From Escherichia coli (GTDB lineage Bacteria; Pseudomonadota; Gammaproteobacteria; Enterobacterales; Enterobacteriaceae), in the NCBI RefSeq assembly GCF_001677475.2, contig NZ_CP015229.1: a stretch of DNA of 64,000 nucleotides. One strand, given 5' to 3'. Position 1 is the first letter of the stretch. Every line of letters begins with the position of its first letter. The translations under genes and the position numbers were made by a program. Below the pieces are notes generated by a model. That model worked only from the letters and a program-made list of their open reading frames with translations. It was not told where the DNA came from and did not search any database. Shown here piece after piece: positions 16,365 through 41,575 of the stretch.

Positions 16365-19300
16365 ATGATTGAATGGATTATTCGTCGCTCGGTGGCGAAC
16401 CGTTTTCTGGTGCTGATGGGCGCGTTGTTTCTGAGTATCTGGGGCACCTGGACCATCATTAACACGCCAGTGGATGCACTGCCGGATCTCTCTGATGTAC
16501 AGGTGATTATTAAAACCAGCTATCCCGGTCAGGCACCGCAAATCGTTGAAAATCAGGTGACTTATCCGCTAACCACCACCATGTTGTCGGTGCCTGGCGC
16601 GAAGACTGTGCGCGGTTTCTCGCAGTTTGGCGACTCTTATGTGTATGTCATTTTCGAAGATGGCACCGATCCGTACTGGGCGCGCTCGCGGGTGCTGGAG
16701 TACCTCAACCAGGTACAGGGTAAGCTGCCTGCGGGAGTCAGCGCCGAGCTGGGGCCAGATGCCACGGGTGTTGGCTGGATCTATGAATATGCACTGGTGG
16801 ATCGCAGCGGTAAGCACGATCTGGCCGATTTACGCTCATTGCAGGACTGGTTTCTCAAATATGAGCTAAAAACCATCCCTGACGTTGCGGAAGTGGCGTC
16901 GGTGGGCGGTGTGGTGAAAGAGTATCAGGTGGTTATCGATCCTCAGCGCCTGGCGCAGTATGGCATCAGTCTCGCCGAAGTAAAAAGCGCGCTGGATGCT
17001 TCAAACCAGGAAGCGGGCGGTTCGTCGATCGAACTGGCGGAAGCGGAATATATGGTGCGCGCCAGCGGCTATCTGCAAACGCTTGACGACTTTAATCACA
17101 TCGTTTTAAAAGCCAGTGAAAATGGCGTGCCCGTTTATCTGTGTGATGTTGCGAAGGTCCAGATTGGCCCGGAGATGCGCCGGGGCATTGCCGAACTAAA
17201 CGGCGAAGGCGAAGTGGCGGGCGGGGTGGTGATCCTGCGCTCCGGCAAAAACGCCCGAGAAGTGATCGCCGCCGTGAAGGACAAACTGGAAACGCTGAAA
17301 AGTAGTCTGCCGGAAGGCGTGGAGATAGTTACAACATACGATCGCAGCCAGCTCATTGACCGCGCCATCGACAACCTCAGCGGCAAGTTGCTGGAAGAGT
17401 TTATTGTGGTGGCGGTAGTCTGTGCGCTGTTTCTCTGGCATGTGCGCTCGGCGCTGGTGGCGATTATTTCGTTGCCGCTGGGGTTGTGTATTGCTTTTAT
17501 TGTCATGCACTTTCAGGGACTGAACGCCAATATTATGTCGCTGGGCGGTATTGCGATTGCCGTCGGGGCGATGGTCGATGCTGCTATCGTCATGATCGAG
17601 AATGCGCATAAACGGCTGGAAGAGTGGCAGCACCAGCATCCTGACGCCACGCTGGATAATAAAACGCGCTGGCAGGTGATTACCGATGCGTCTGTTGAAG
17701 TGGGTCCGGCGCTGTTTATCAGTCTGCTGATTATCACACTGTCGTTTATCCCGATCTTCACCCTGGAAGGGCAGGAAGGGCGTCTGTTTGGCCCGCTGGC
17801 GTTCACCAAAACGTATGCGATGGCGGGCGCGGCGCTGCTGGCGATCGTGGTGATCCCGATCCTGATGGGCTACTGGATCCGTGGCAAAATTCCGCCAGAA
17901 AGCAGTAACCCGCTCAATCGCTTTTTGATTCGTGCTTATCATCCGCTGTTGCTGAAAGTACTGCACTGGCCAAAAACCACGCTGCTGGTGGCAGCGCTTT
18001 CGGTGCTGACGGTTCTCTGGCCGCTCAATAAAGTTGGCGGGGAATTTTTACCGCAGATCAATGAAGGCGACTTGTTGTATATGCCATCGACGCTGCCGGG
18101 GATTTCCGCAGCAGAGGCGGCGAGTATGCTGCAAAAAACCGACAAGCTGATTATGAGCGTACCTGAAGTGGCGCGGGTATTTGGCAAAACCGGGAAAGCG
18201 GAAACCGCCACCGATTCTGCTCCGCTGGAGATGGTAGAAACGACCATCCAGCTTAAGCCACAAGATCAGTGGCGGCCAGGCATGACGATGGGCAAAATCA
18301 TCGAGGAACTGGATAACACCGTGCGGCTGCCGGGGCTGGCGAATCTGTGGGTGCCGCCAATTCGTAACCGTATCGATATGCTCTCGACTGGCATTAAAAG
18401 CCCCATCGGCATTAAAGTTTCCGGCACTGTGCTGGCGGATATCGACGCGATGGCGGAGCAAATTGAAGAAGTGGCACGAACGGTGCCAGGCGTGGCTTCT
18501 GCGCTTGCTGAGCGTCTGGAAGGTGGGCGCTATATCAACGTTGAGATTAACCGTGAAAAAGCCGCGCGTTACGGTATGACGGTGGCGGATGTGCAATTGT
18601 TTGTGACTTCTGCGGTGGGCGGGGCGATGGTTGGCGAAACGGTGGAAGGGATTGCCCGTTATCCGATTAATCTGCGTTATCCGCAAAGCTGGCGCGATAG
18701 TCCGCAGGCACTGCGCCAGTTACCAATTTTGACGCCGATGAAGCAGCAAATTACCCTGGCAGATGTGGCCGACGTTAAAGTCTCTACCGGACCGTCGATG
18801 CTGAAAACCGAGAATGCGCGCCCGACGAGCTGGATTTATATCGATGCCCGCGATCGTGACATGGTGTCGGTGGTTCACGATTTGCAAAAAGCGATAGCTG
18901 AAAAAGTGCAGTTAAAACCGGGCACCAGCGTGGCATTCTCCGGGCAGTTCGAGCTACTGGAGCGCGCCAACCATAAGCTGAAACTCATGGTGCCGATGAC
19001 GTTGATGATCATCTTCGTGCTGTTGTATTTGGCGTTCCGTCGGGTGGGCGAAGCGTTGCTGATTATCAGCAGCGTACCGTTTGCGTTGGTGGGCGGCATC
19101 TGGTTGCTGTGGTGGATGGGCTTTCATCTTTCCGTGGCGACGGGCACTGGCTTTATCGCCCTTGCCGGAGTCGCCGCCGAATTTGGCGTGGTGATGCTGA
19201 TGTATTTACGTCACGCCATAGAGGCCGAGCCGTCGTTGAATAATCCGCAAACATTCAGTGAGCAGAAGCTGGATGAGGCGTTGTATCACGGCGCGGTACT

Positions 19301-25472: not shown

Positions 25473-25625
25473 ATGCTGACGAAATATGCCCTTGTGGCAG
25501 TCATAGTGCTGTGTTTGACGGTACTGGGATTTACGCTTCTGGTCGGAGACTCGCTGTGTGAGTTTACGGTGAAGGAACGTAATATTGAGTTTAAGGCTGT
25601 TCTCGCTTACGAACCGAAGAAGTAG
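25473..25625 (+). CDS. hokE: Hok-family membrane toxin, copy 1
   Basis: ATG at 25473; 50 aa [50 protein letters not shown], typical Hok single-TM toxin. Confidence 0.85.
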
Positions 25626-25876
25626 CCGTTGTGCGGGGAGTAATCCCCGCATATCCGGTTGTCAGGTCAGGGTGGTAAGGCACCTGCTTTACACTTTCGC
25701 CCGCGGTCAGCAATGGCTGCGGGCGATGTCGTTTTAAGGGCAATGATCAGTTTTGCCAACAGAAGTCCGAAACAGGATTCACTGTATAAATAAACAGCTA
25801 TTTTGCTGAGGAAGGGTAAGATAACGGCGGGTGCCTGAAGCTTTCCGGTTTCAGGTTAACTCTGAGGTCTGGAAAG

Positions 25877-26065
25877 ATGAAGCCCCAGGATGATATTTCT
25901 ATCAACCCTGGGGCTACCTACCCAAACCTGAACAATTTGGATGGTAGTCCCTTCTTCGCATGGAGGCAATATAAACATGCTGACGAAATATGCCCTTGTG
26001 GCAGTCATAGTGCTGTGTTTAACGGTGCTGGGATTTACGCTTCTGGTCGGAGACTCGCTGTGTGA
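25877..26065 (+). CDS. mok-like overlapping reading frame, copy 2
   Basis: 62-codon ORF ([12 protein letters not shown]...) starting upstream of and overlapping hok copy 2 in a different frame, the arrangement of mok in hok/sok systems; assignment rests on arrangement only. Confidence 0.45.
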
Positions 26066-26129
26066 GTTTACGGTGAAGGAACGTAATATTGAGTTTAAGG
26101 CTGTTCTCGCTTACGAACCGAAGAAGTAG
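25977..26129 (+). CDS. hokE: Hok-family membrane toxin, copy 2
   Basis: ATG at 25977; 50-aa product identical to copy 1. Confidence 0.85.
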
Positions 26130-26250
26130 CCGTTGTGCGGGGAGTAATCCCCGCATATCCGGTTGTCAGGTCAGGATGGTAAGGCACCTGCTTTACACTT
26201 TCGCCCGTGGTCAGTGATGGCTGCGGGCGAATCGTACCAGATGTTGTCAA

Positions 26251-29444: not shown

Positions 29445-29495
29445 GCAAATGCAAATAGTTATCAATAATATTATCAATATATTTCTGCAATCAAT
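29445..29495. promoter_or_regulatory. Fur-box region in fepA-fes divergent promoter
   Basis: AT-rich gcaaatgcaaatagttatcaataatattatcaatat resembling GATAATGATAATCATTATC iron-box repeats. Confidence 0.6.
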
Positions 29496-35044: not shown

Positions 35045-36178
35045 ATGTCATCACTGAATATTAAACAGGGAAGTGACGCTCATTTTCCTGAGTATCCTCT
35101 GGCGTCGCCCAGTAATAATGAAATTGATTTACTTAATCTAATCGAAGTTTTATGGCGGGCCAAAAAAACGGTCATGGCGGTCGTTTTTGCATTTGCCTGC
35201 GCAGGTTTACTGATCTCTTTCATCCTGCCGCAAAAATGGACCAGCTCAGCCGTTATTACTCCCGCCGAAGCCATTCAGTGGCAGGACCTGGAGAAAACCT
35301 TTACCAAACTCCGCGTTCTTGATCTCGATGTTAATATCGACCGTGGCGGTGCATTTAACCTGTTTATCAAGAAGTTTCAGTCGGTTAGCTTGCTGGAAGA
35401 GTACCTACGTTCATCACCTTATGTGATGGACCAATTAAAAGAGGCGAAAATCGACGAACTGGATTTGCATCGCGCAATTGTCGCATTGAGCGAAAAAATG
35501 AAAGCGGTTGATGACAATGCCAGTAAGAAAAAAGATGAACCGTCACTGTATACCTCCTGGACGCTAACTTTTACCGCACCAACCAGTGAAGAAGCGAAGA
35601 CCGTTTTGAGCGGGTATATCGATTATATCTCTGCGTTGGTGGTGAAAGAGTCGATAGAAAACGTCCGTAATAAACTGGAGATCAAAACCCAGTTTGAAAA
35701 AGAAAAACTGGCTCAGGATCGCATTAAAACGAAAAATCAACTTGATGCAAACATTCAGCGCCTCAATTATTCACTCGACATTGCCAACGCGGCAGGAATT
35801 AAAAAGCCCGTATACAGTAATGGTCAGGCCGTTAAAGATGACCCCGATTTCTCTATTTCTCTCGGCGCAGACGGTATTGAACGCAAACTGGAAATTGAAA
35901 AAGCGGTCACTGACGTTGCGGAACTGAACGGTGAATTACGTAATCGTCAGTATCTTGTTGAGCAGTTAACAAAAGCAAATATCAACGATGTGAATTTTAC
36001 GCCATTTAAATATCAGTTAAGCCCGTCATTGCCAGTGAAAAAAGACGGTCCGGGTAAGGCGATTATTGTGATCCTTTCCGCGTTGATCGGCGGAATGGTG
36101 GCTTGTGGTGGCGTGCTGTTGCGCCATGCGATGGCATCCAGAAAACAGGATGCCATGATGGCAGACCACTTAGTTTAA
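35045..36178 (+). CDS. fepE: Polysaccharide chain-length regulator (Wzz-like) FepE
   Basis: 377-aa ORF with N- and C-terminal TM segments. Confidence 0.9.
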   Translation: MSSLNIKQGSDAHFPEYPLASPSNNEIDLLNLIEVLWRAKKTVMAVVFAFACAGLLISFILPQKWTSSAVITPAEAIQWQDLEKTFTKLRVLDLDVNIDRGGAFNLFIKKFQSVSLLEEYLRSSPYVMDQLKEAKIDELDLHRAIVALSEKMKAVDDNASKKKDEPSLYTSWTLTFTAPTSEEAKTVLSGYIDYISALVVKESIENVRNKLEIKTQFEKEKLAQDRIKTKNQLDANIQRLNYSLDIANAAGIKKPVYSNGQAVKDDPDFSISLGADGIERKLEIEKAVTDVAELNGELRNRQYLVEQLTKANINDVNFTPFKYQLSPSLPVKKDGPGKAIIVILSALIGGMVACGGVLLRHAMASRKQDAMMADHLV

Positions 36179-36990: not shown

Positions 36991-37979
36991 TTTTTGCGAG
37001 ACTCCTGAATTAACAAGACGATAAGGTAAATACCGCCGAGGCTGACGGTAACGACGCCAACCGGAAGTTGATACGGCATAAACAGTTGTTGGGCGCAGAG
37101 ATCGGCCGCCAGCAGTAACAGCGCCCCGCACAGCGCCGCCTGGGTCAGCCCCCAGCGAGCGGTGCCGCTAATGCGTCGGGCAATGTGCGGCGCGACTAAA
37201 GCAATAAAGGAAATCGGCCCGGCAAGCGCTGTTGCCGCAGCGGTAAGCACCACTGCAACCAGCATCATTAATAGACGCGAACGTTCGACGCTGACGCCCA
37301 GCGCACACGCGGTATCATCGCCCATCTCCAGCAAGCGCATTCGCCGCACCAGTAAGGCGGCGGCAATGAGCATCAATATAATGATGGGGGCGGAAGGCGA
37401 GGTTTTTGCCCACGTCAGGCCGTTGAGCGATCCGGCATTCCACAAACCTGCTGTTAGCGCCGTTTCTAAAGACGCTTTCAGCAACAGCCAGGTATTAAAG
37501 GCCACCAGCATGGCGCGAACACCGATACCGATAATAATCAACCGAAAGGTGTCGATGCCGTTACGCCAGGCGAGCAGCCAGACCAACAGCGAAGTGACAA
37601 TGCCGCCCATCATTGCTGCCAGCGCGATAGCCGTCAGGTCCTGACCAAACAGCACCATCGCCACCAGCACGCCGCTCCACGCCCCGGTGTTAAAACCCAT
37701 TACGTCAGGGCTGCCGAGCGGGTTACGCATCAGCGACTGAAAAATCGCGCCGCTGACGCCCAGCGCCGCGCCAATCAACAGCGCCATCAGCACGCGTGGT
37801 AAACGCCATTCGGTGACCACCATCGTCATACTGCGCGGCGCATCGCCCATCAGCGCGGCGAATACCTGCGAGGTTTCCAGCGTGACGGCACCGCTGCGTA
37901 ATCCCCAGATACCTGCAACCACACAGGCGGAAATCAGCAGCAAACAGGTGATGAGTAATCGGCGAGAGACGTAAATCAT
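36987..37979 (-). CDS. fepG: Ferric enterobactin ABC transporter permease FepG
   Basis: 330-aa ORF; 4-nt overlap with fepC start. Confidence 0.95.
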   Translation of the reverse strand: MIYVSRRLLITCLLLISACVVAGIWGLRSGAVTLETSQVFAALMGDAPRSMTMVVTEWRLPRVLMALLIGAALGVSGAIFQSLMRNPLGSPDVMGFNTGAWSGVLVAMVLFGQDLTAIALAAMMGGIVTSLLVWLLAWRNGIDTFRLIIIGIGVRAMLVAFNTWLLLKASLETALTAGLWNAGSLNGLTWAKTSPSAPIIILMLIAAALLVRRMRLLEMGDDTACALGVSVERSRLLMMLVAVVLTAAATALAGPISFIALVAPHIARRISGTARWGLTQAALCGALLLLAADLCAQQLFMPYQLPVGVVTVSLGGIYLIVLLIQESRKK

Positions 37980-38980
37980 GCACCACCTCGCGTTTTACGT
38001 CGCACGAGGAAGATTAGCACCGGTGCACCAATAAACGCACTGACCACAGAAACGCGCAACTCGCCGGGCACAATCACCCGCCCGATGATATCGGCAAACA
38101 GCAGCAGGGCAGGGGTGGCGAGTAGCGTGACGGGCAGCGACCAGCGATGATCGGCACCCACCAGCCAACGCGCCATATGCGGCATCATCAGGCCAATAAA
38201 GGCAATCGGGCCAACTACCGCTGTCGCACTACCACAAAGCACGGTAATCGCCAGCAGACCAATTAACTGTGTGCGCGCCACGCGACTGCCCAGCGCCGTC
38301 GCGGTGTCGCTGCCGAGGCTTAAACTGTTCAGTGCGCGGCTCAGTAATAGCGCGGTTGCTCCGGCGACCAGCACCGGGATCAGCACCACTTTTAAGGTAT
38401 GTAGATTGCGAATATCCAGCGAACCGGCTTGCCAGAAACGTAGTTGATCGTAGACGTCAGGATTAAGCAGGGCGATGCCGCTGGTCAGCCCTTCCAGCAC
38501 CGCCGCCAGCGCCACGCCCGCCAGGGTTAAACGCACCGGACTTAACTGCCCGCCGCCCTGGCTGCCGGTAAAGGCAACAATCAACGAGGCCACCAGCGCC
38601 CCGGCGAAGGCCATCGCCAGTTGTTCCTGTGCGGAAGAGTAACCAAACAGCGCCGCACCCAGCACAATGGCAAAGCTGGCTCCGGCGTTCACGCCAAGCA
38701 AGCCGGGGTCGGCAAGTGGATTTCGGGTGAGGGTTTGCATCAACGCCCCGGCAAGGCCAAGCGCGCCGCCTGCAAGTAAACCGGCAAGGGTGCGCGGCAG
38801 TCGCGCGTCGAGCACGATGGTGCAGTCGGCGCTCTGACAGGTGCCGGAGAGGGCCTCCAGCACTACGGAAGCGGGGAGTGATTTTGCCCCAATGAGCAGG
38901 CTTAATGCCGTCGCGATAATCAGTAATAACAGCAATCCGGGCACGGCAATGGCGCGTGTCACGGCAACAGAACCAGACAT
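37976..38980 (-). CDS. fepD: Ferric enterobactin ABC transporter permease FepD
   Basis: Start trimmed to MSGSVAVTRAIAV; 334 aa; 4-nt overlap with fepG start. Confidence 0.95.
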   Translation of the reverse strand: MSGSVAVTRAIAVPGLLLLLIIATALSLLIGAKSLPASVVLEALSGTCQSADCTIVLDARLPRTLAGLLAGGALGLAGALMQTLTRNPLADPGLLGVNAGASFAIVLGAALFGYSSAQEQLAMAFAGALVASLIVAFTGSQGGGQLSPVRLTLAGVALAAVLEGLTSGIALLNPDVYDQLRFWQAGSLDIRNLHTLKVVLIPVLVAGATALLLSRALNSLSLGSDTATALGSRVARTQLIGLLAITVLCGSATAVVGPIAFIGLMMPHMARWLVGADHRWSLPVTLLATPALLLFADIIGRVIVPGELRVSVVSAFIGAPVLIFLVRRKTRGGA

Positions 38981-38992
38981 ACGAACTTCCAT

Positions 38993-39017
38993 GATAATGA
39001 AATTAATTATCGTTATC
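38993..39017. promoter_or_regulatory. Putative Fur box in fepD-entS divergent promoter
   Basis: gataatgaaattaattatcgttatc between fepD start (38980) and entS start (39091). Confidence 0.5.
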
Positions 39018-39090
39018 GATCTTATTTGGATATGTTAGCATGTGCAGCCTAAGAATAGGTATTTAAAATATTTGATGGCAAGGCATTGTA

Positions 39091-40341
39091 ATGAATAAAC
39101 AATCCTGGCTGCTTAACCTCAGCCTGTTGAAAACGCACCCGGCGTTTCGCGCAGTATTCCTCGCTCGTTTTATCTCAATTGTGTCTCTGGGTTTGCTCGG
39201 CGTCGCGGTACCGGTGCAGATCCAGATGATGACGCATTCTACCTGGCAGGTGGGGCTTTCGGTGACGCTGACCGGCGGCGCGATGTTTGTTGGCCTGATG
39301 GTCGGCGGTGTGCTGGCGGATCGCTATGAGCGCAAAAAAGTGATTTTACTGGCGCGCGGCACCTGTGGCATTGGCTTCATTGGACTGTGCCTGAATGCGC
39401 TGCTGCCGGAGCCGTCATTGCTGGCAATCTATTCACTCGGTTTATGGGATGGTTTTTTCGCATCGCTTGGCGTTACGGCGCTACTGGCGGCGACACCTGC
39501 ACTGGTAGGGCGTGAAAACCTAATGCAGGCCGGGGCGATCACCATGTTGACCGTGCGTCTGGGATCGGTGATTTCGCCCATGATTGGCGGTTTACTGCTG
39601 GCGACTGGCGGCATAGCCTGGAACTACGGGCTGGCGGCGGCGGGCACGTTTATTACCTTGCTACCGTTGTTAAGCCTTCCGGCGTTGCCACCGCCACCGC
39701 AGCCGCGTGAGCATCCGTTGAAATCATTACTGGCAGGATTTCGTTTTCTGCTCGCCAGCCCGCTGGTAGGAGGGATTGCGCTGCTGGGTGGTTTATTGAC
39801 GATGGCGAGCGCGGTGCGGGTACTGTATCCGGCGCTGGCTGACAACTGGCAGATGTCGGCGGCACAGATTGGTTTTCTCTATGCGGCGATCCCGCTCGGT
39901 GCGGCTATTGGCGCGTTAACCAGCGGGAAGCTGGCACATAGCGCGCGACCAGGGTTATTGATGTTGCTCTCCACGCTGGGATCGTTCCTCGCCATTGGTC
40001 TGTTTGGCCTGATGCCGATGTGGATTTTAGGCGTGGTTTGTCTGGCGCTGTTCGGCTGGCTGAGCGCGGTTAGTTCGTTGCTGCAATATACAATGCTGCA
40101 AACGCAAACCCCGGAAGCGATGTTAGGGCGGATTAACGGTTTGTGGACGGCGCAAAATGTGACGGGAGATGCCATAGGCGCGGCGCTGCTGGGCGGTTTG
40201 GGAGCGATGATGACACCGGTTGCTTCCGCAAGCGCGAGCGGTTTTGGTTTGTTGATTATCGGCGTGTTGTTGTTGCTGGTGCTGGTGGAGTTGCGACGTT
40301 TTCGCCAGACGCCGCCGCAGGTGACAGCGTCCGACAGTTAG
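39091..40341 (+). CDS. entS: Enterobactin exporter (MFS) EntS
   Basis: 416-aa ORF, polytopic membrane protein. Confidence 0.95.
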
Positions 40342-40354
40342 CTAAAGGTGCATT

Positions 40355-40399
40355 TTCCCCTCACCCTAACCCTCTCCCCAAAGGGGCGAGGGGACTGTT
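40355..40399. repeat. GC-rich palindromic intergenic repeat, copy 1 (family name uncertain)
   Basis: ttcccctcaccctaaccctctccccaaaggggcgaggggactgtt; imperfect palindrome; near-identical element at 48749..48794. Confidence 0.6.
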
Positions 40400-40421
40400 A
40401 GTGCTCTAATTTTATGTTTTA

Positions 40422-41387
40422 TCAATCTTTTTTAAACAGTGAATTAAGTCTGTCCAGCACTTGCATGGCGCTGTAGTAATCCAGGCGGAACGTCTCGGTT
40501 CCCAGCGCATAAACCTGCTTGTTTTGTACTGCGGGCAGGTGTGCGAGCAGCGGATTAGCATAAATAGCATCGGCGTCTTTCTGATCACCGGCGAACAGGA
40601 ATAGTGACTCGCCATTTAACCCTGCAGCCAGATTTTCCCCACCAAGCTGAATGATGTCATGGCGTTTGCCCTGGCTTTGGCTGGCGTTTAAGCCTGCGGG
40701 CAACTTCGCCAGCGTAAAGCCGAGTTGTTCCAGCATCTGCCCTTGTGCTGATTCCGGCGTCCAGAGATTGGCACTGTGTGCAGCGGCAGTATAGACAATG
40801 GCAGTGATCGGCTGCGGCGGTAATTTGATTTGCTCTTTCGCCGCTGCCAGTTGCTTATCAAACTGTGCAATCCGCTTTGCCGCTTGTTTCTCATGCCCGG
40901 TAATTTCGCCAAGCTGCGTTAACAGCGACTGCCAGCTTTTGTCGTCGTAATTGATGATTAATGTCGGGGCGATGGTAGAGAGCTGATCATACAGCGCCAG
41001 CGCCGAATCACCGCCGGTTGCGCTAATTAAAATCAGATCCGGCATTTGCGCGGCAACGGCTTCTGCACTCGGTTCGCCGATATAGAGCCGTTGCAGTTTG
41101 CGTTCTGTCGCCACCTTGCTCCACTGGCGTAAAAAGCCCTGGTCATCCGCGACGCGGTTATTTGGCGTGGTCGCGCCGCTGGCGATCACCGGAGCATCAA
41201 TCGCCAGCAGTGAGCCGGTCAAGGTGACGCTGGTGGAAACAATACGCTGCGGCTGGCTTTCCAGGGTATGAGTGCCACGGCTGTCAGTAATCTGACGCGG
41301 CCAGTCGGCAGCCTGAACTACGGCTATTCCTGAAAGCAAAAGTCCTGTTAATAGAAGGGCGTTGCGGTAGAGCGAGGCGAGTCTCAC
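40422..41387 (-). CDS. fepB: Periplasmic ferric enterobactin-binding protein FepB
   Basis: 321-aa [29 protein letters not shown]... Confidence 0.95.
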
Positions 41388-41526
41388 AAATCAGCTTCCT
41401 GTTATTAATGAAGTTAATGCTTCTCATTTTCATTGTAACCACAACCAGATGCAACCCCGAGTTGCAGATTGCGTTACCTCAAGAGTTGACATAGTGCGCG
41501 TTTGCTTTTAGGTTAGCGACCGAAAA

Positions 41527-41547
41527 TATAAATGATAATCATTATTA
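41527..41547. promoter_or_regulatory. Fur box in fepB-entC divergent promoter
   Basis: ataaatgataatcattatt, close match to GATAATGATAATCATTATC. Confidence 0.65.
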
Positions 41548-41575
41548 AAGCCTTTATCATTTTGTGGAGGATGAT

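Follow-up and report, generated by a model that had tools for sequence, protein, structure and literature searches.

We identify the 25-mer GATAATGAAATTAATTATCGTTATC, located at positions 38993–39017 on the plus strand of the 64-kb stretch of Escherichia coli DNA analysed here (the window), as belonging to the Fur operator of the bidirectional fepDGC–entS promoter in the enterobactin cluster, a reading to which we assign a probability of about 97%. The original prediction had described a putative Fur box in the fepD–entS divergent promoter. A Fur box is indeed present, as judged from sequence statistics, promoter position, recovery of the site in 79 of 80 species, and K-12 footprint, gel-shift, ChIP-exo and Δfur data, whereas ‘putative’ proved too cautious, since the fepD–entS Fur operator is already known and was experimentally characterised in 2001–2002. 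In the present analysis we observed the sequence match, its register, its position relative to published transcription start sites (TSSs), and its conservation.

The predicted position between the divergent fepD and entS genes was correct, with the located string and the gene coordinates in agreement. The 25-mer is made up of four head-to-tail GATAAT-like hexamers (GATAAT, GAAATT, AATTAT and CGTTAT) followed by a C, and the flanking features are as follows.

37976–38980, minus strand: fepD coding sequence, from the 334-codon RefSeq annotation of the orthologous fepD, with the start codon at 38978–38980.
38985–38989, minus strand: likely fepD ribosome-binding site (GGAAG), as read from the leader, adjoining the Fur cluster.
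39091–40341, plus strand: entS coding sequence (enterobactin exporter), from the ORF list and annotation.

Both neighbours are iron-acquisition genes, with fepDGC encoding the ferric-enterobactin ABC permease and entS the enterobactin exporter. A 1.1-kb query taken round the site found matches in 5,416 of 5,426 complete E. coli genomes, and the flanking genes in the genomes matched are annotated fepD and entS. The enterobactin cluster is complete, with its gene order in the window the same as in the annotated regions of ABWA45 and K-12 MG1655.

An alternative fepD start at 38992, with which the coding sequence would begin right beside the box, was dropped in favour of the start at 38980. The mechanical ORF list places the fepD ORF at 37976–38992, beginning from an in-frame ATG at 38990–38992 that lies 12 nt upstream of the annotated start and abuts the Fur box. 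This start was rejected because the upstream ATG is missing in most genera and has no ribosome-binding site; in the alignment, the CAT at 38990–38992 is CTT in most genera, making the ATG there specific to Escherichia, while the start at 38980 is conserved.

Compared with the classical 19-bp Fur consensus (GATAATGATAATCATTATC), positions 38993–39011 match at 16 of 19 bases, and nowhere else in the 64 kb, on either strand, is there a site with at most three mismatches (0.01 expected from dinucleotide shuffles). A second register, at 38999–39017, matches at 15 of 19. We also scored the window using a palindromic 19-bp (9-1-9) position weight matrix (PWM) built from 18 footprinted or gel-shifted K-12 Fur sites, for which the coordinates were taken from Chen et al. 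2007 (PMC2189734) and from which the fepD–entS site was left out. The scores closely follow those published (entC, 23.3 versus 23.1 bits; fepA–fes, 18.7 versus 18.7 bits), although the entC, fepB and fepA–fes orthologues are in the training set and their window scores are therefore partly by construction, which is not the case for fepD–entS.

A PWM scan had been proposed as a check on the original prediction, and it returned the left-out fepD–entS core (38996–39014) at 19.2 bits, ranking second of about 64,000 positions, with entC first. Scores of at least 19.2 bits have a probability of 1e-7 per position, giving 0.006 expected per 64 kb, and were reached in one of 2,000 dinucleotide shuffles of the 110-bp intergenic region and in none of 100 whole-window shuffles. 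The fepD–entS Fur match is far above chance. Using TGATAATnATTATCA as the 7-1-7 core for matching, the sites that make up the cluster (all unstranded) are as follows.

38996–39014: strongest single-dimer (9-1-9) Fur site, AATGAAATTAATTATCGTT, centred at 39005, with 19.2 bits and a 7-1-7 match of 11/14.
38990–39008: left-hand Fur site, shifted by 6 bp and overlapping the strongest one, centred at 38999, with 10.2 bits and a 7-1-7 match of 10/14.
39002–39020: right-hand Fur site, likewise shifted by 6 bp and overlapping the strongest one, centred at 39011, with 13.7 bits and a 7-1-7 match of 10/14.
38990–39026: full Fur-site cluster, comprising all overlapping 19-mers with a positive score, 37 bp in length.

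Within this cluster, the PWM gives 10.2, 0.6, 19.2, 13.7 and 4.0 bits for sites centred at 38999, 39002, 39005, 39011 and 39017, respectively. Four of these centres (38999, 39005, 39011 and 39017) are offset by exactly 6 bp, forming an array spaced as Chen et al. 2007 (PMC2189734) report for Fur clusters elsewhere in E. coli, and the left half-site of the 38990–39008 site (TGATAAT) is perfect. The site had also been predicted to be a weaker match than that at entC, a comparison that depends on the yardstick. It holds by the PWM (19.2 versus 23.3 bits; 19.4–20.1 versus 23.1 bits as published, PMC2189734) and by the best 7-1-7 core (11/14 versus 13/14), but is reversed by the raw classical 19-mer, for which fepD–entS matches at 16/19 and entC at 15/19. 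By the measures that matter, the statement is right.

The position of the cluster was compared with the promoter elements and TSSs of both operons, mapped onto the window as follows.

39013–39018, plus strand: entS −35 element (TTATCG), from the NAR 2026 Table S2 fragment and the −35 mutation (PMC12825309), inside the Fur cluster.
39036–39041, plus strand: entS −10 element (TAGCAT), from NAR 2026 (PMC12825309), 8 nt upstream of the mapped TSS.
39049, plus strand: entS TSS, from Cappable-seq (U00096.2 621481 (+)) and SMRT-Cappable-seq (NC_000913.3 622258 forward, b0591).
39055–39060, minus strand: fepDGC −35 element (ACCTAT), at the position of the bottom-strand TTGACA ‘up’ mutation (PMC12825309), with a 17-bp spacer.
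39032–39037, minus strand: fepDGC −10 element (TAACAT), from PMC12825309, overlapping the entS −10 element by 2 bp.
39025, minus strand: fepDGC TSS, from SMRT-Cappable-seq (NC_000913.3 622234 reverse, transcripts b0590/b0589/b0588).

The entS −35 and −10 elements are separated by 17 bp, and the fepD/entS core fragment used in the NAR 2026 study (PMC12825309) corresponds to 39013–39060. The Fur cluster (38990–39026) extends from −59 to −23 relative to the entS TSS, including the entS −35 element, and from −1 to +36 relative to the fepD TSS; one operator would therefore block both promoters. A consensus promoter scan missed the real entS promoter and gave a minus-strand match inside the box, and the architecture was therefore defined independently of that scan.

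In the plain-text version of Table S2 of PMC12825309, the mutation labelled ‘entS up’ introduces TTGACA into the fepD-driving strand, and ‘fepD down’ destroys the −35 element that drives entS, as judged from genome orientation and TSS data. The labels may be swapped, or may be an artefact of lost formatting. Given this conflict, the direction of each TSS was taken from SMRT-Cappable-seq.

The Fur site was followed across the Enterobacteriaceae at 80 loci, using one genome per species with EntS and covering Escherichia, Salmonella, Citrobacter, Enterobacter, Klebsiella, Raoultella, Kluyvera, Kosakonia, Erwinia and other genera. In 79 of the 80 species, the orthologous site gives the best PWM match in the 260 bp preceding entS, with a score of 17.6–25 bits, and is mostly positioned at −79 to −87 from the entS ATG (farther in a few, through insertions). 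An alignment of 72 unique Enterobacteriaceae sequences places the Fur block as the most conserved part of the spacer, with a mean column conservation of 0.976 for the 25-mer and 0.974 for the shared −10 block (39032–39041), compared with 76% for the fepD coding sequence, 88% for the entS coding sequence and 69–84% for the remaining spacer.

The commonest enterobacterial form of the site, AATGATAGTAATTATCGTT, scores 21.5 bits, and the Escherichia form, AATGAAATTAATTATCGTT, differs from it at two positions and scores 19.2 bits. The Escherichia change from CTT to CAT creates the extra in-frame ATG at 38992 that abuts the box. It is conceivable, though we think it improbable, that the Escherichia operator is a derived and slightly weakened form that, together with this change, retunes the iron threshold or the fepD/entS ratio, as opposed to having arisen by neutral drift.

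The window is identical to K-12 across 38852–39170, and no longer run free of differences occurs within 4.3 kb of sequence that elsewhere differs by 2.7%. Among 5,416 E. coli genomes, 5,278 carry the 110-bp spacer at 99% identity or more. Window coordinates were obtained by subtracting 582432 from the K-12 (.2) coordinate. For the K-12 site, Table 4 of Chen et al. 2007 (PMC2189734) lists a 37-bp Fur cluster of four walkers, centred at 621437 (window 39005) with 19.4–20.1 bits, and the same study found a positive gel shift at 150 nM Fur. The region protected by Fur is as follows.

38962–39030, unstranded: DNase I footprint of Fur, from Lavrrar et al. 2002 as relayed by Chen et al. 2007 (NC_000913.2 621394–621462).

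As relayed there, the part of the footprint to the left of 38990 is secondary and of low affinity, with no recognisable site. In vivo, ChIP-exo peaks in MG1655 at 621437–621459 and 621447–621465 map to window 39005–39033, and a peak in W3110 lies at 621435–621447. Both fepD and entS are included in the nine-strain core Fur regulon and are derepressed in Δfur strains, with log2 fold changes across the nine E. coli strains of 2.0–7.1 for fepD and 1.8–7.4 for entS. A separate study found fepDGC and entS to be strongly Fur-repressed, and a 2016 paper describes the enterobactin cluster as six operons with three Fur-controlled bidirectional regions, one of which is between fepD and entS.

On the other side, Chen et al. 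2007 (PMC2189734) saw the cluster fall outside any strong sigma-70 promoter predicted by their model, noted that early microarrays gave no significant Fur repression of the flanking genes, and considered that repression was perhaps weak. This weak-repression reading is contradicted by later RNA-seq, and the RNA-seq and ChIP-exo data outweigh it. Published work on the identical K-12 sequence supplies the evidence that Fur binds in vitro and in vivo and that Δfur strains are derepressed; by that identity, these findings would be expected to apply to the strain from which the window derives.

Three other explanations were weighed against, or alongside, a Fur operator. That an unbound, AT-rich spacer resembles a Fur box by chance is extremely improbable. 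The intergenic region is 69% A+T, Fur-like strings are commoner in AT-rich DNA, and the AT-rich segment at 2912–2930 reaches 15.2 bits with no obvious iron connection; however, even against a background this rich in A+T, the fepD–entS spacer is expected to hold only 0.0005 sites scoring 19.2 bits or more, the most conserved part of that spacer in 72 distinct sequences is the Fur block, and a footprint, gel shift and ChIP-exo have been published for the identical sequence. A chance match was accordingly rejected on the shuffle statistics of the AT-rich spacer. Scarcely more probable is that the block serves mainly another protein (a metalloregulator, CRP, or H-NS/Fis) or an UP-element-like feature, with Fur incidental. 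Its location at −59 to −23 of entS is the usual zone for UP elements and activators, and AT-rich tracts are typical H-NS and Fis targets, yet conservation falls exactly on the bases of the Fur 9-1-9 motif, in its 6-bp register, the variation among genera holds the score at 17.6–25 bits, and both genes are derepressed when fur is deleted. Any additional overlapping regulator site would add to the Fur function and would not replace it.

The remaining explanation, that the box also holds a secondary fepD promoter on the minus strand, starting about 4–8 nt upstream of the fepD ATG, is less remote than these two but still unlikely. It arises from the match given by the consensus scan.

39019–39014 and 38996–38991, minus strand: TCGATA and TATCAT, separated by 17 bp, a candidate secondary fepD promoter.

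This candidate matches the consensus at 9 of 12 positions, and a 2001 study reportedly saw secondary promoters once the primary ones had been inactivated. The scan found two promoter-like matches against 0.7 expected in shuffles, however, which is weak evidence; the Fur half-sites (GATAAT/ATTATC) resemble −10 hexamers by composition, and SMRT-Cappable-seq gives only the start at 39025 for fepDGC.

For the Fur operator itself, we propose that when iron is plentiful, Fe2+-loaded Fur dimers would bind the three main overlapping 9-1-9 inverted repeats (centred at 38999, 39005 and 39011) at 6-bp offsets within an array spanning about 38990–39026, with protection extending left to about 38962 at higher Fur concentration. 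The two back-to-back promoters fire from the shared −10 region (39032–39041), and the single Fur array lies over the −35 element and upstream contacts of entS as well as the start and early transcribed region of fepD. RNA polymerase would be excluded from both promoters at once, presumably through steric occlusion, in agreement with the observation of Chen et al. 2007 (PMC2189734) that the promoter lies on one side of the cluster and the translational start on the other. When iron is scarce, Fur would dissociate, and the FepDGC permease and EntS exporter would be expressed. Papers from the McIntosh laboratory are said to describe a single Fur site that coordinates two overlapping, competing promoters, which agrees with the architecture here.

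The fepD–entS region is one of three textbook Fur-controlled bidirectional regions of the enterobactin cluster, and its operator lets iron switch siderophore export (EntS) and ferric-siderophore import (FepDGC) together. The value of the assignment lies in correct annotation, with a genuine operator recognised from sequence alone and no new biology, while the cross-species footprint, with the site recovered in 79 of 80 species and two conserved blocks (operator and shared −10), is an independent confirmation of the published architecture.

Several other features of the window were recorded. The ent cluster (26140–48691) differs from both K-12 and ABWA45 by about 3.2%. Over the 1.1-kb query, the best of the 5,426 E. 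coli genomes is only 98.6% identical. Identities of 93–94% were obtained for E. albertii, E. whittamii and one more Escherichia species. The window therefore comes either from an E. coli lineage that has diverged somewhat or from a recombinant ent region, and the fepD–entS control region is invariant despite this divergence.

Just downstream of entD is an intact ORF for a Hok/Gef-family toxin (25977–26129, 50 aa; Pfam HOK_GEF, E = 2e-8), flanked by direct repeats of about 107 bp at 25620–25726 and 26125–26231. K-12 aligns with just one copy of the repeat, adjoining IS186, so that the hokE-type locus seems to have stayed undisrupted in the window. Between the convergent entS and fepB stop codons, at 40342–40430, lies a GC-rich palindromic insert of 89 bp (containing CCCTCACCCTAACCCTCTCCCCAAAGGGGCGAGGGGAC), where the gap is only 3 bp in K-12 and ABWA45. 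The insert is a dispersed repeat found at a median of seven places per E. coli genome, and the full 89 bp is present at the entS–fepB locus in only 38 of 5,426 E. coli genomes. In the fepB–entC spacer, about 183 bp of K-12 sequence is missing (16541–16725 of the K-12 locus, against a junction at 41415–41417 in the window), which gives the two Fur operators of that spacer a different spacing from that in K-12.

Two further places give Fur-like scores. At 2912–2930 (AATTATAATTAATATTATA), well away from the ent cluster in a highly AT-rich segment separating two ORFs, the Fur PWM score of 15.2 bits is borderline, with about 0.3 sites of at least 13.7 bits expected per 64 kb. At the start of fepE (35111–35135; AGTAATAATGAAATTGATTTACTTA), two overlapping weak sites 6 bp apart score 9.8 and 10.8 bits and resemble the left half of the fepD–entS box; these are at chance level, with about 2–3 sites of at least 10 bits expected per 64 kb. 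According to SMRT-Cappable-seq, fepE is co-transcribed with fes–entF.

The closest known system is the K-12 fepDGC–entS (formerly fepD–ybdA) operator itself (Christoffersen et al. 2001, J Bacteriol 183:2059; Lavrrar et al. 2002, J Mol Biol 322:983; Chen et al. 2007, PMC2189734). The two have the same sequence across 38852–39170 and share gene arrangement, cluster size, centre and score; the operator and promoter are without difference, whereas the surrounding coding DNA differs by about 2.7–3.2%. The element in the window is thus the K-12 operator itself, carried by another E. coli-like genome.

Among the other enterobactin regions, fepB–entC (Brickman et al. 1990) likewise comprises divergent iron-regulated operons with overlapping Fur sites spaced at 6 bp, and its sites in the window are as follows.

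41416–41434: Fur site on the fepB side.
41525–41549: Fur site on the entC side.

It differs in that each promoter has an operator of its own, the two lying more than 100 bp apart, where fepD–entS has one compact operator for both, and in the greater strength of its entC site by the PWM and the 7-1-7 core, as given above. The fepA–fes region (Hunt et al. 1994) is similar to fepD–entS in having one Fur cluster common to two divergent promoters and in its strength (18.7 bits at 29448–29466), but its spacer is longer, with about 240 bp between the start codons and the site at −172/−149 from them. Lastly, fepD/entS is among the five model pairs of symmetrical bidirectional promoters (Warman et al. 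2021; NAR 2026, PMC12825309), with divergent TSSs 24 bp apart and a shared −10 block at 39032–39041. That work (PMC12825309) concerns RNA-polymerase competition and not Fur, and the Fur array is placed beside the shared −10 block and not on it.
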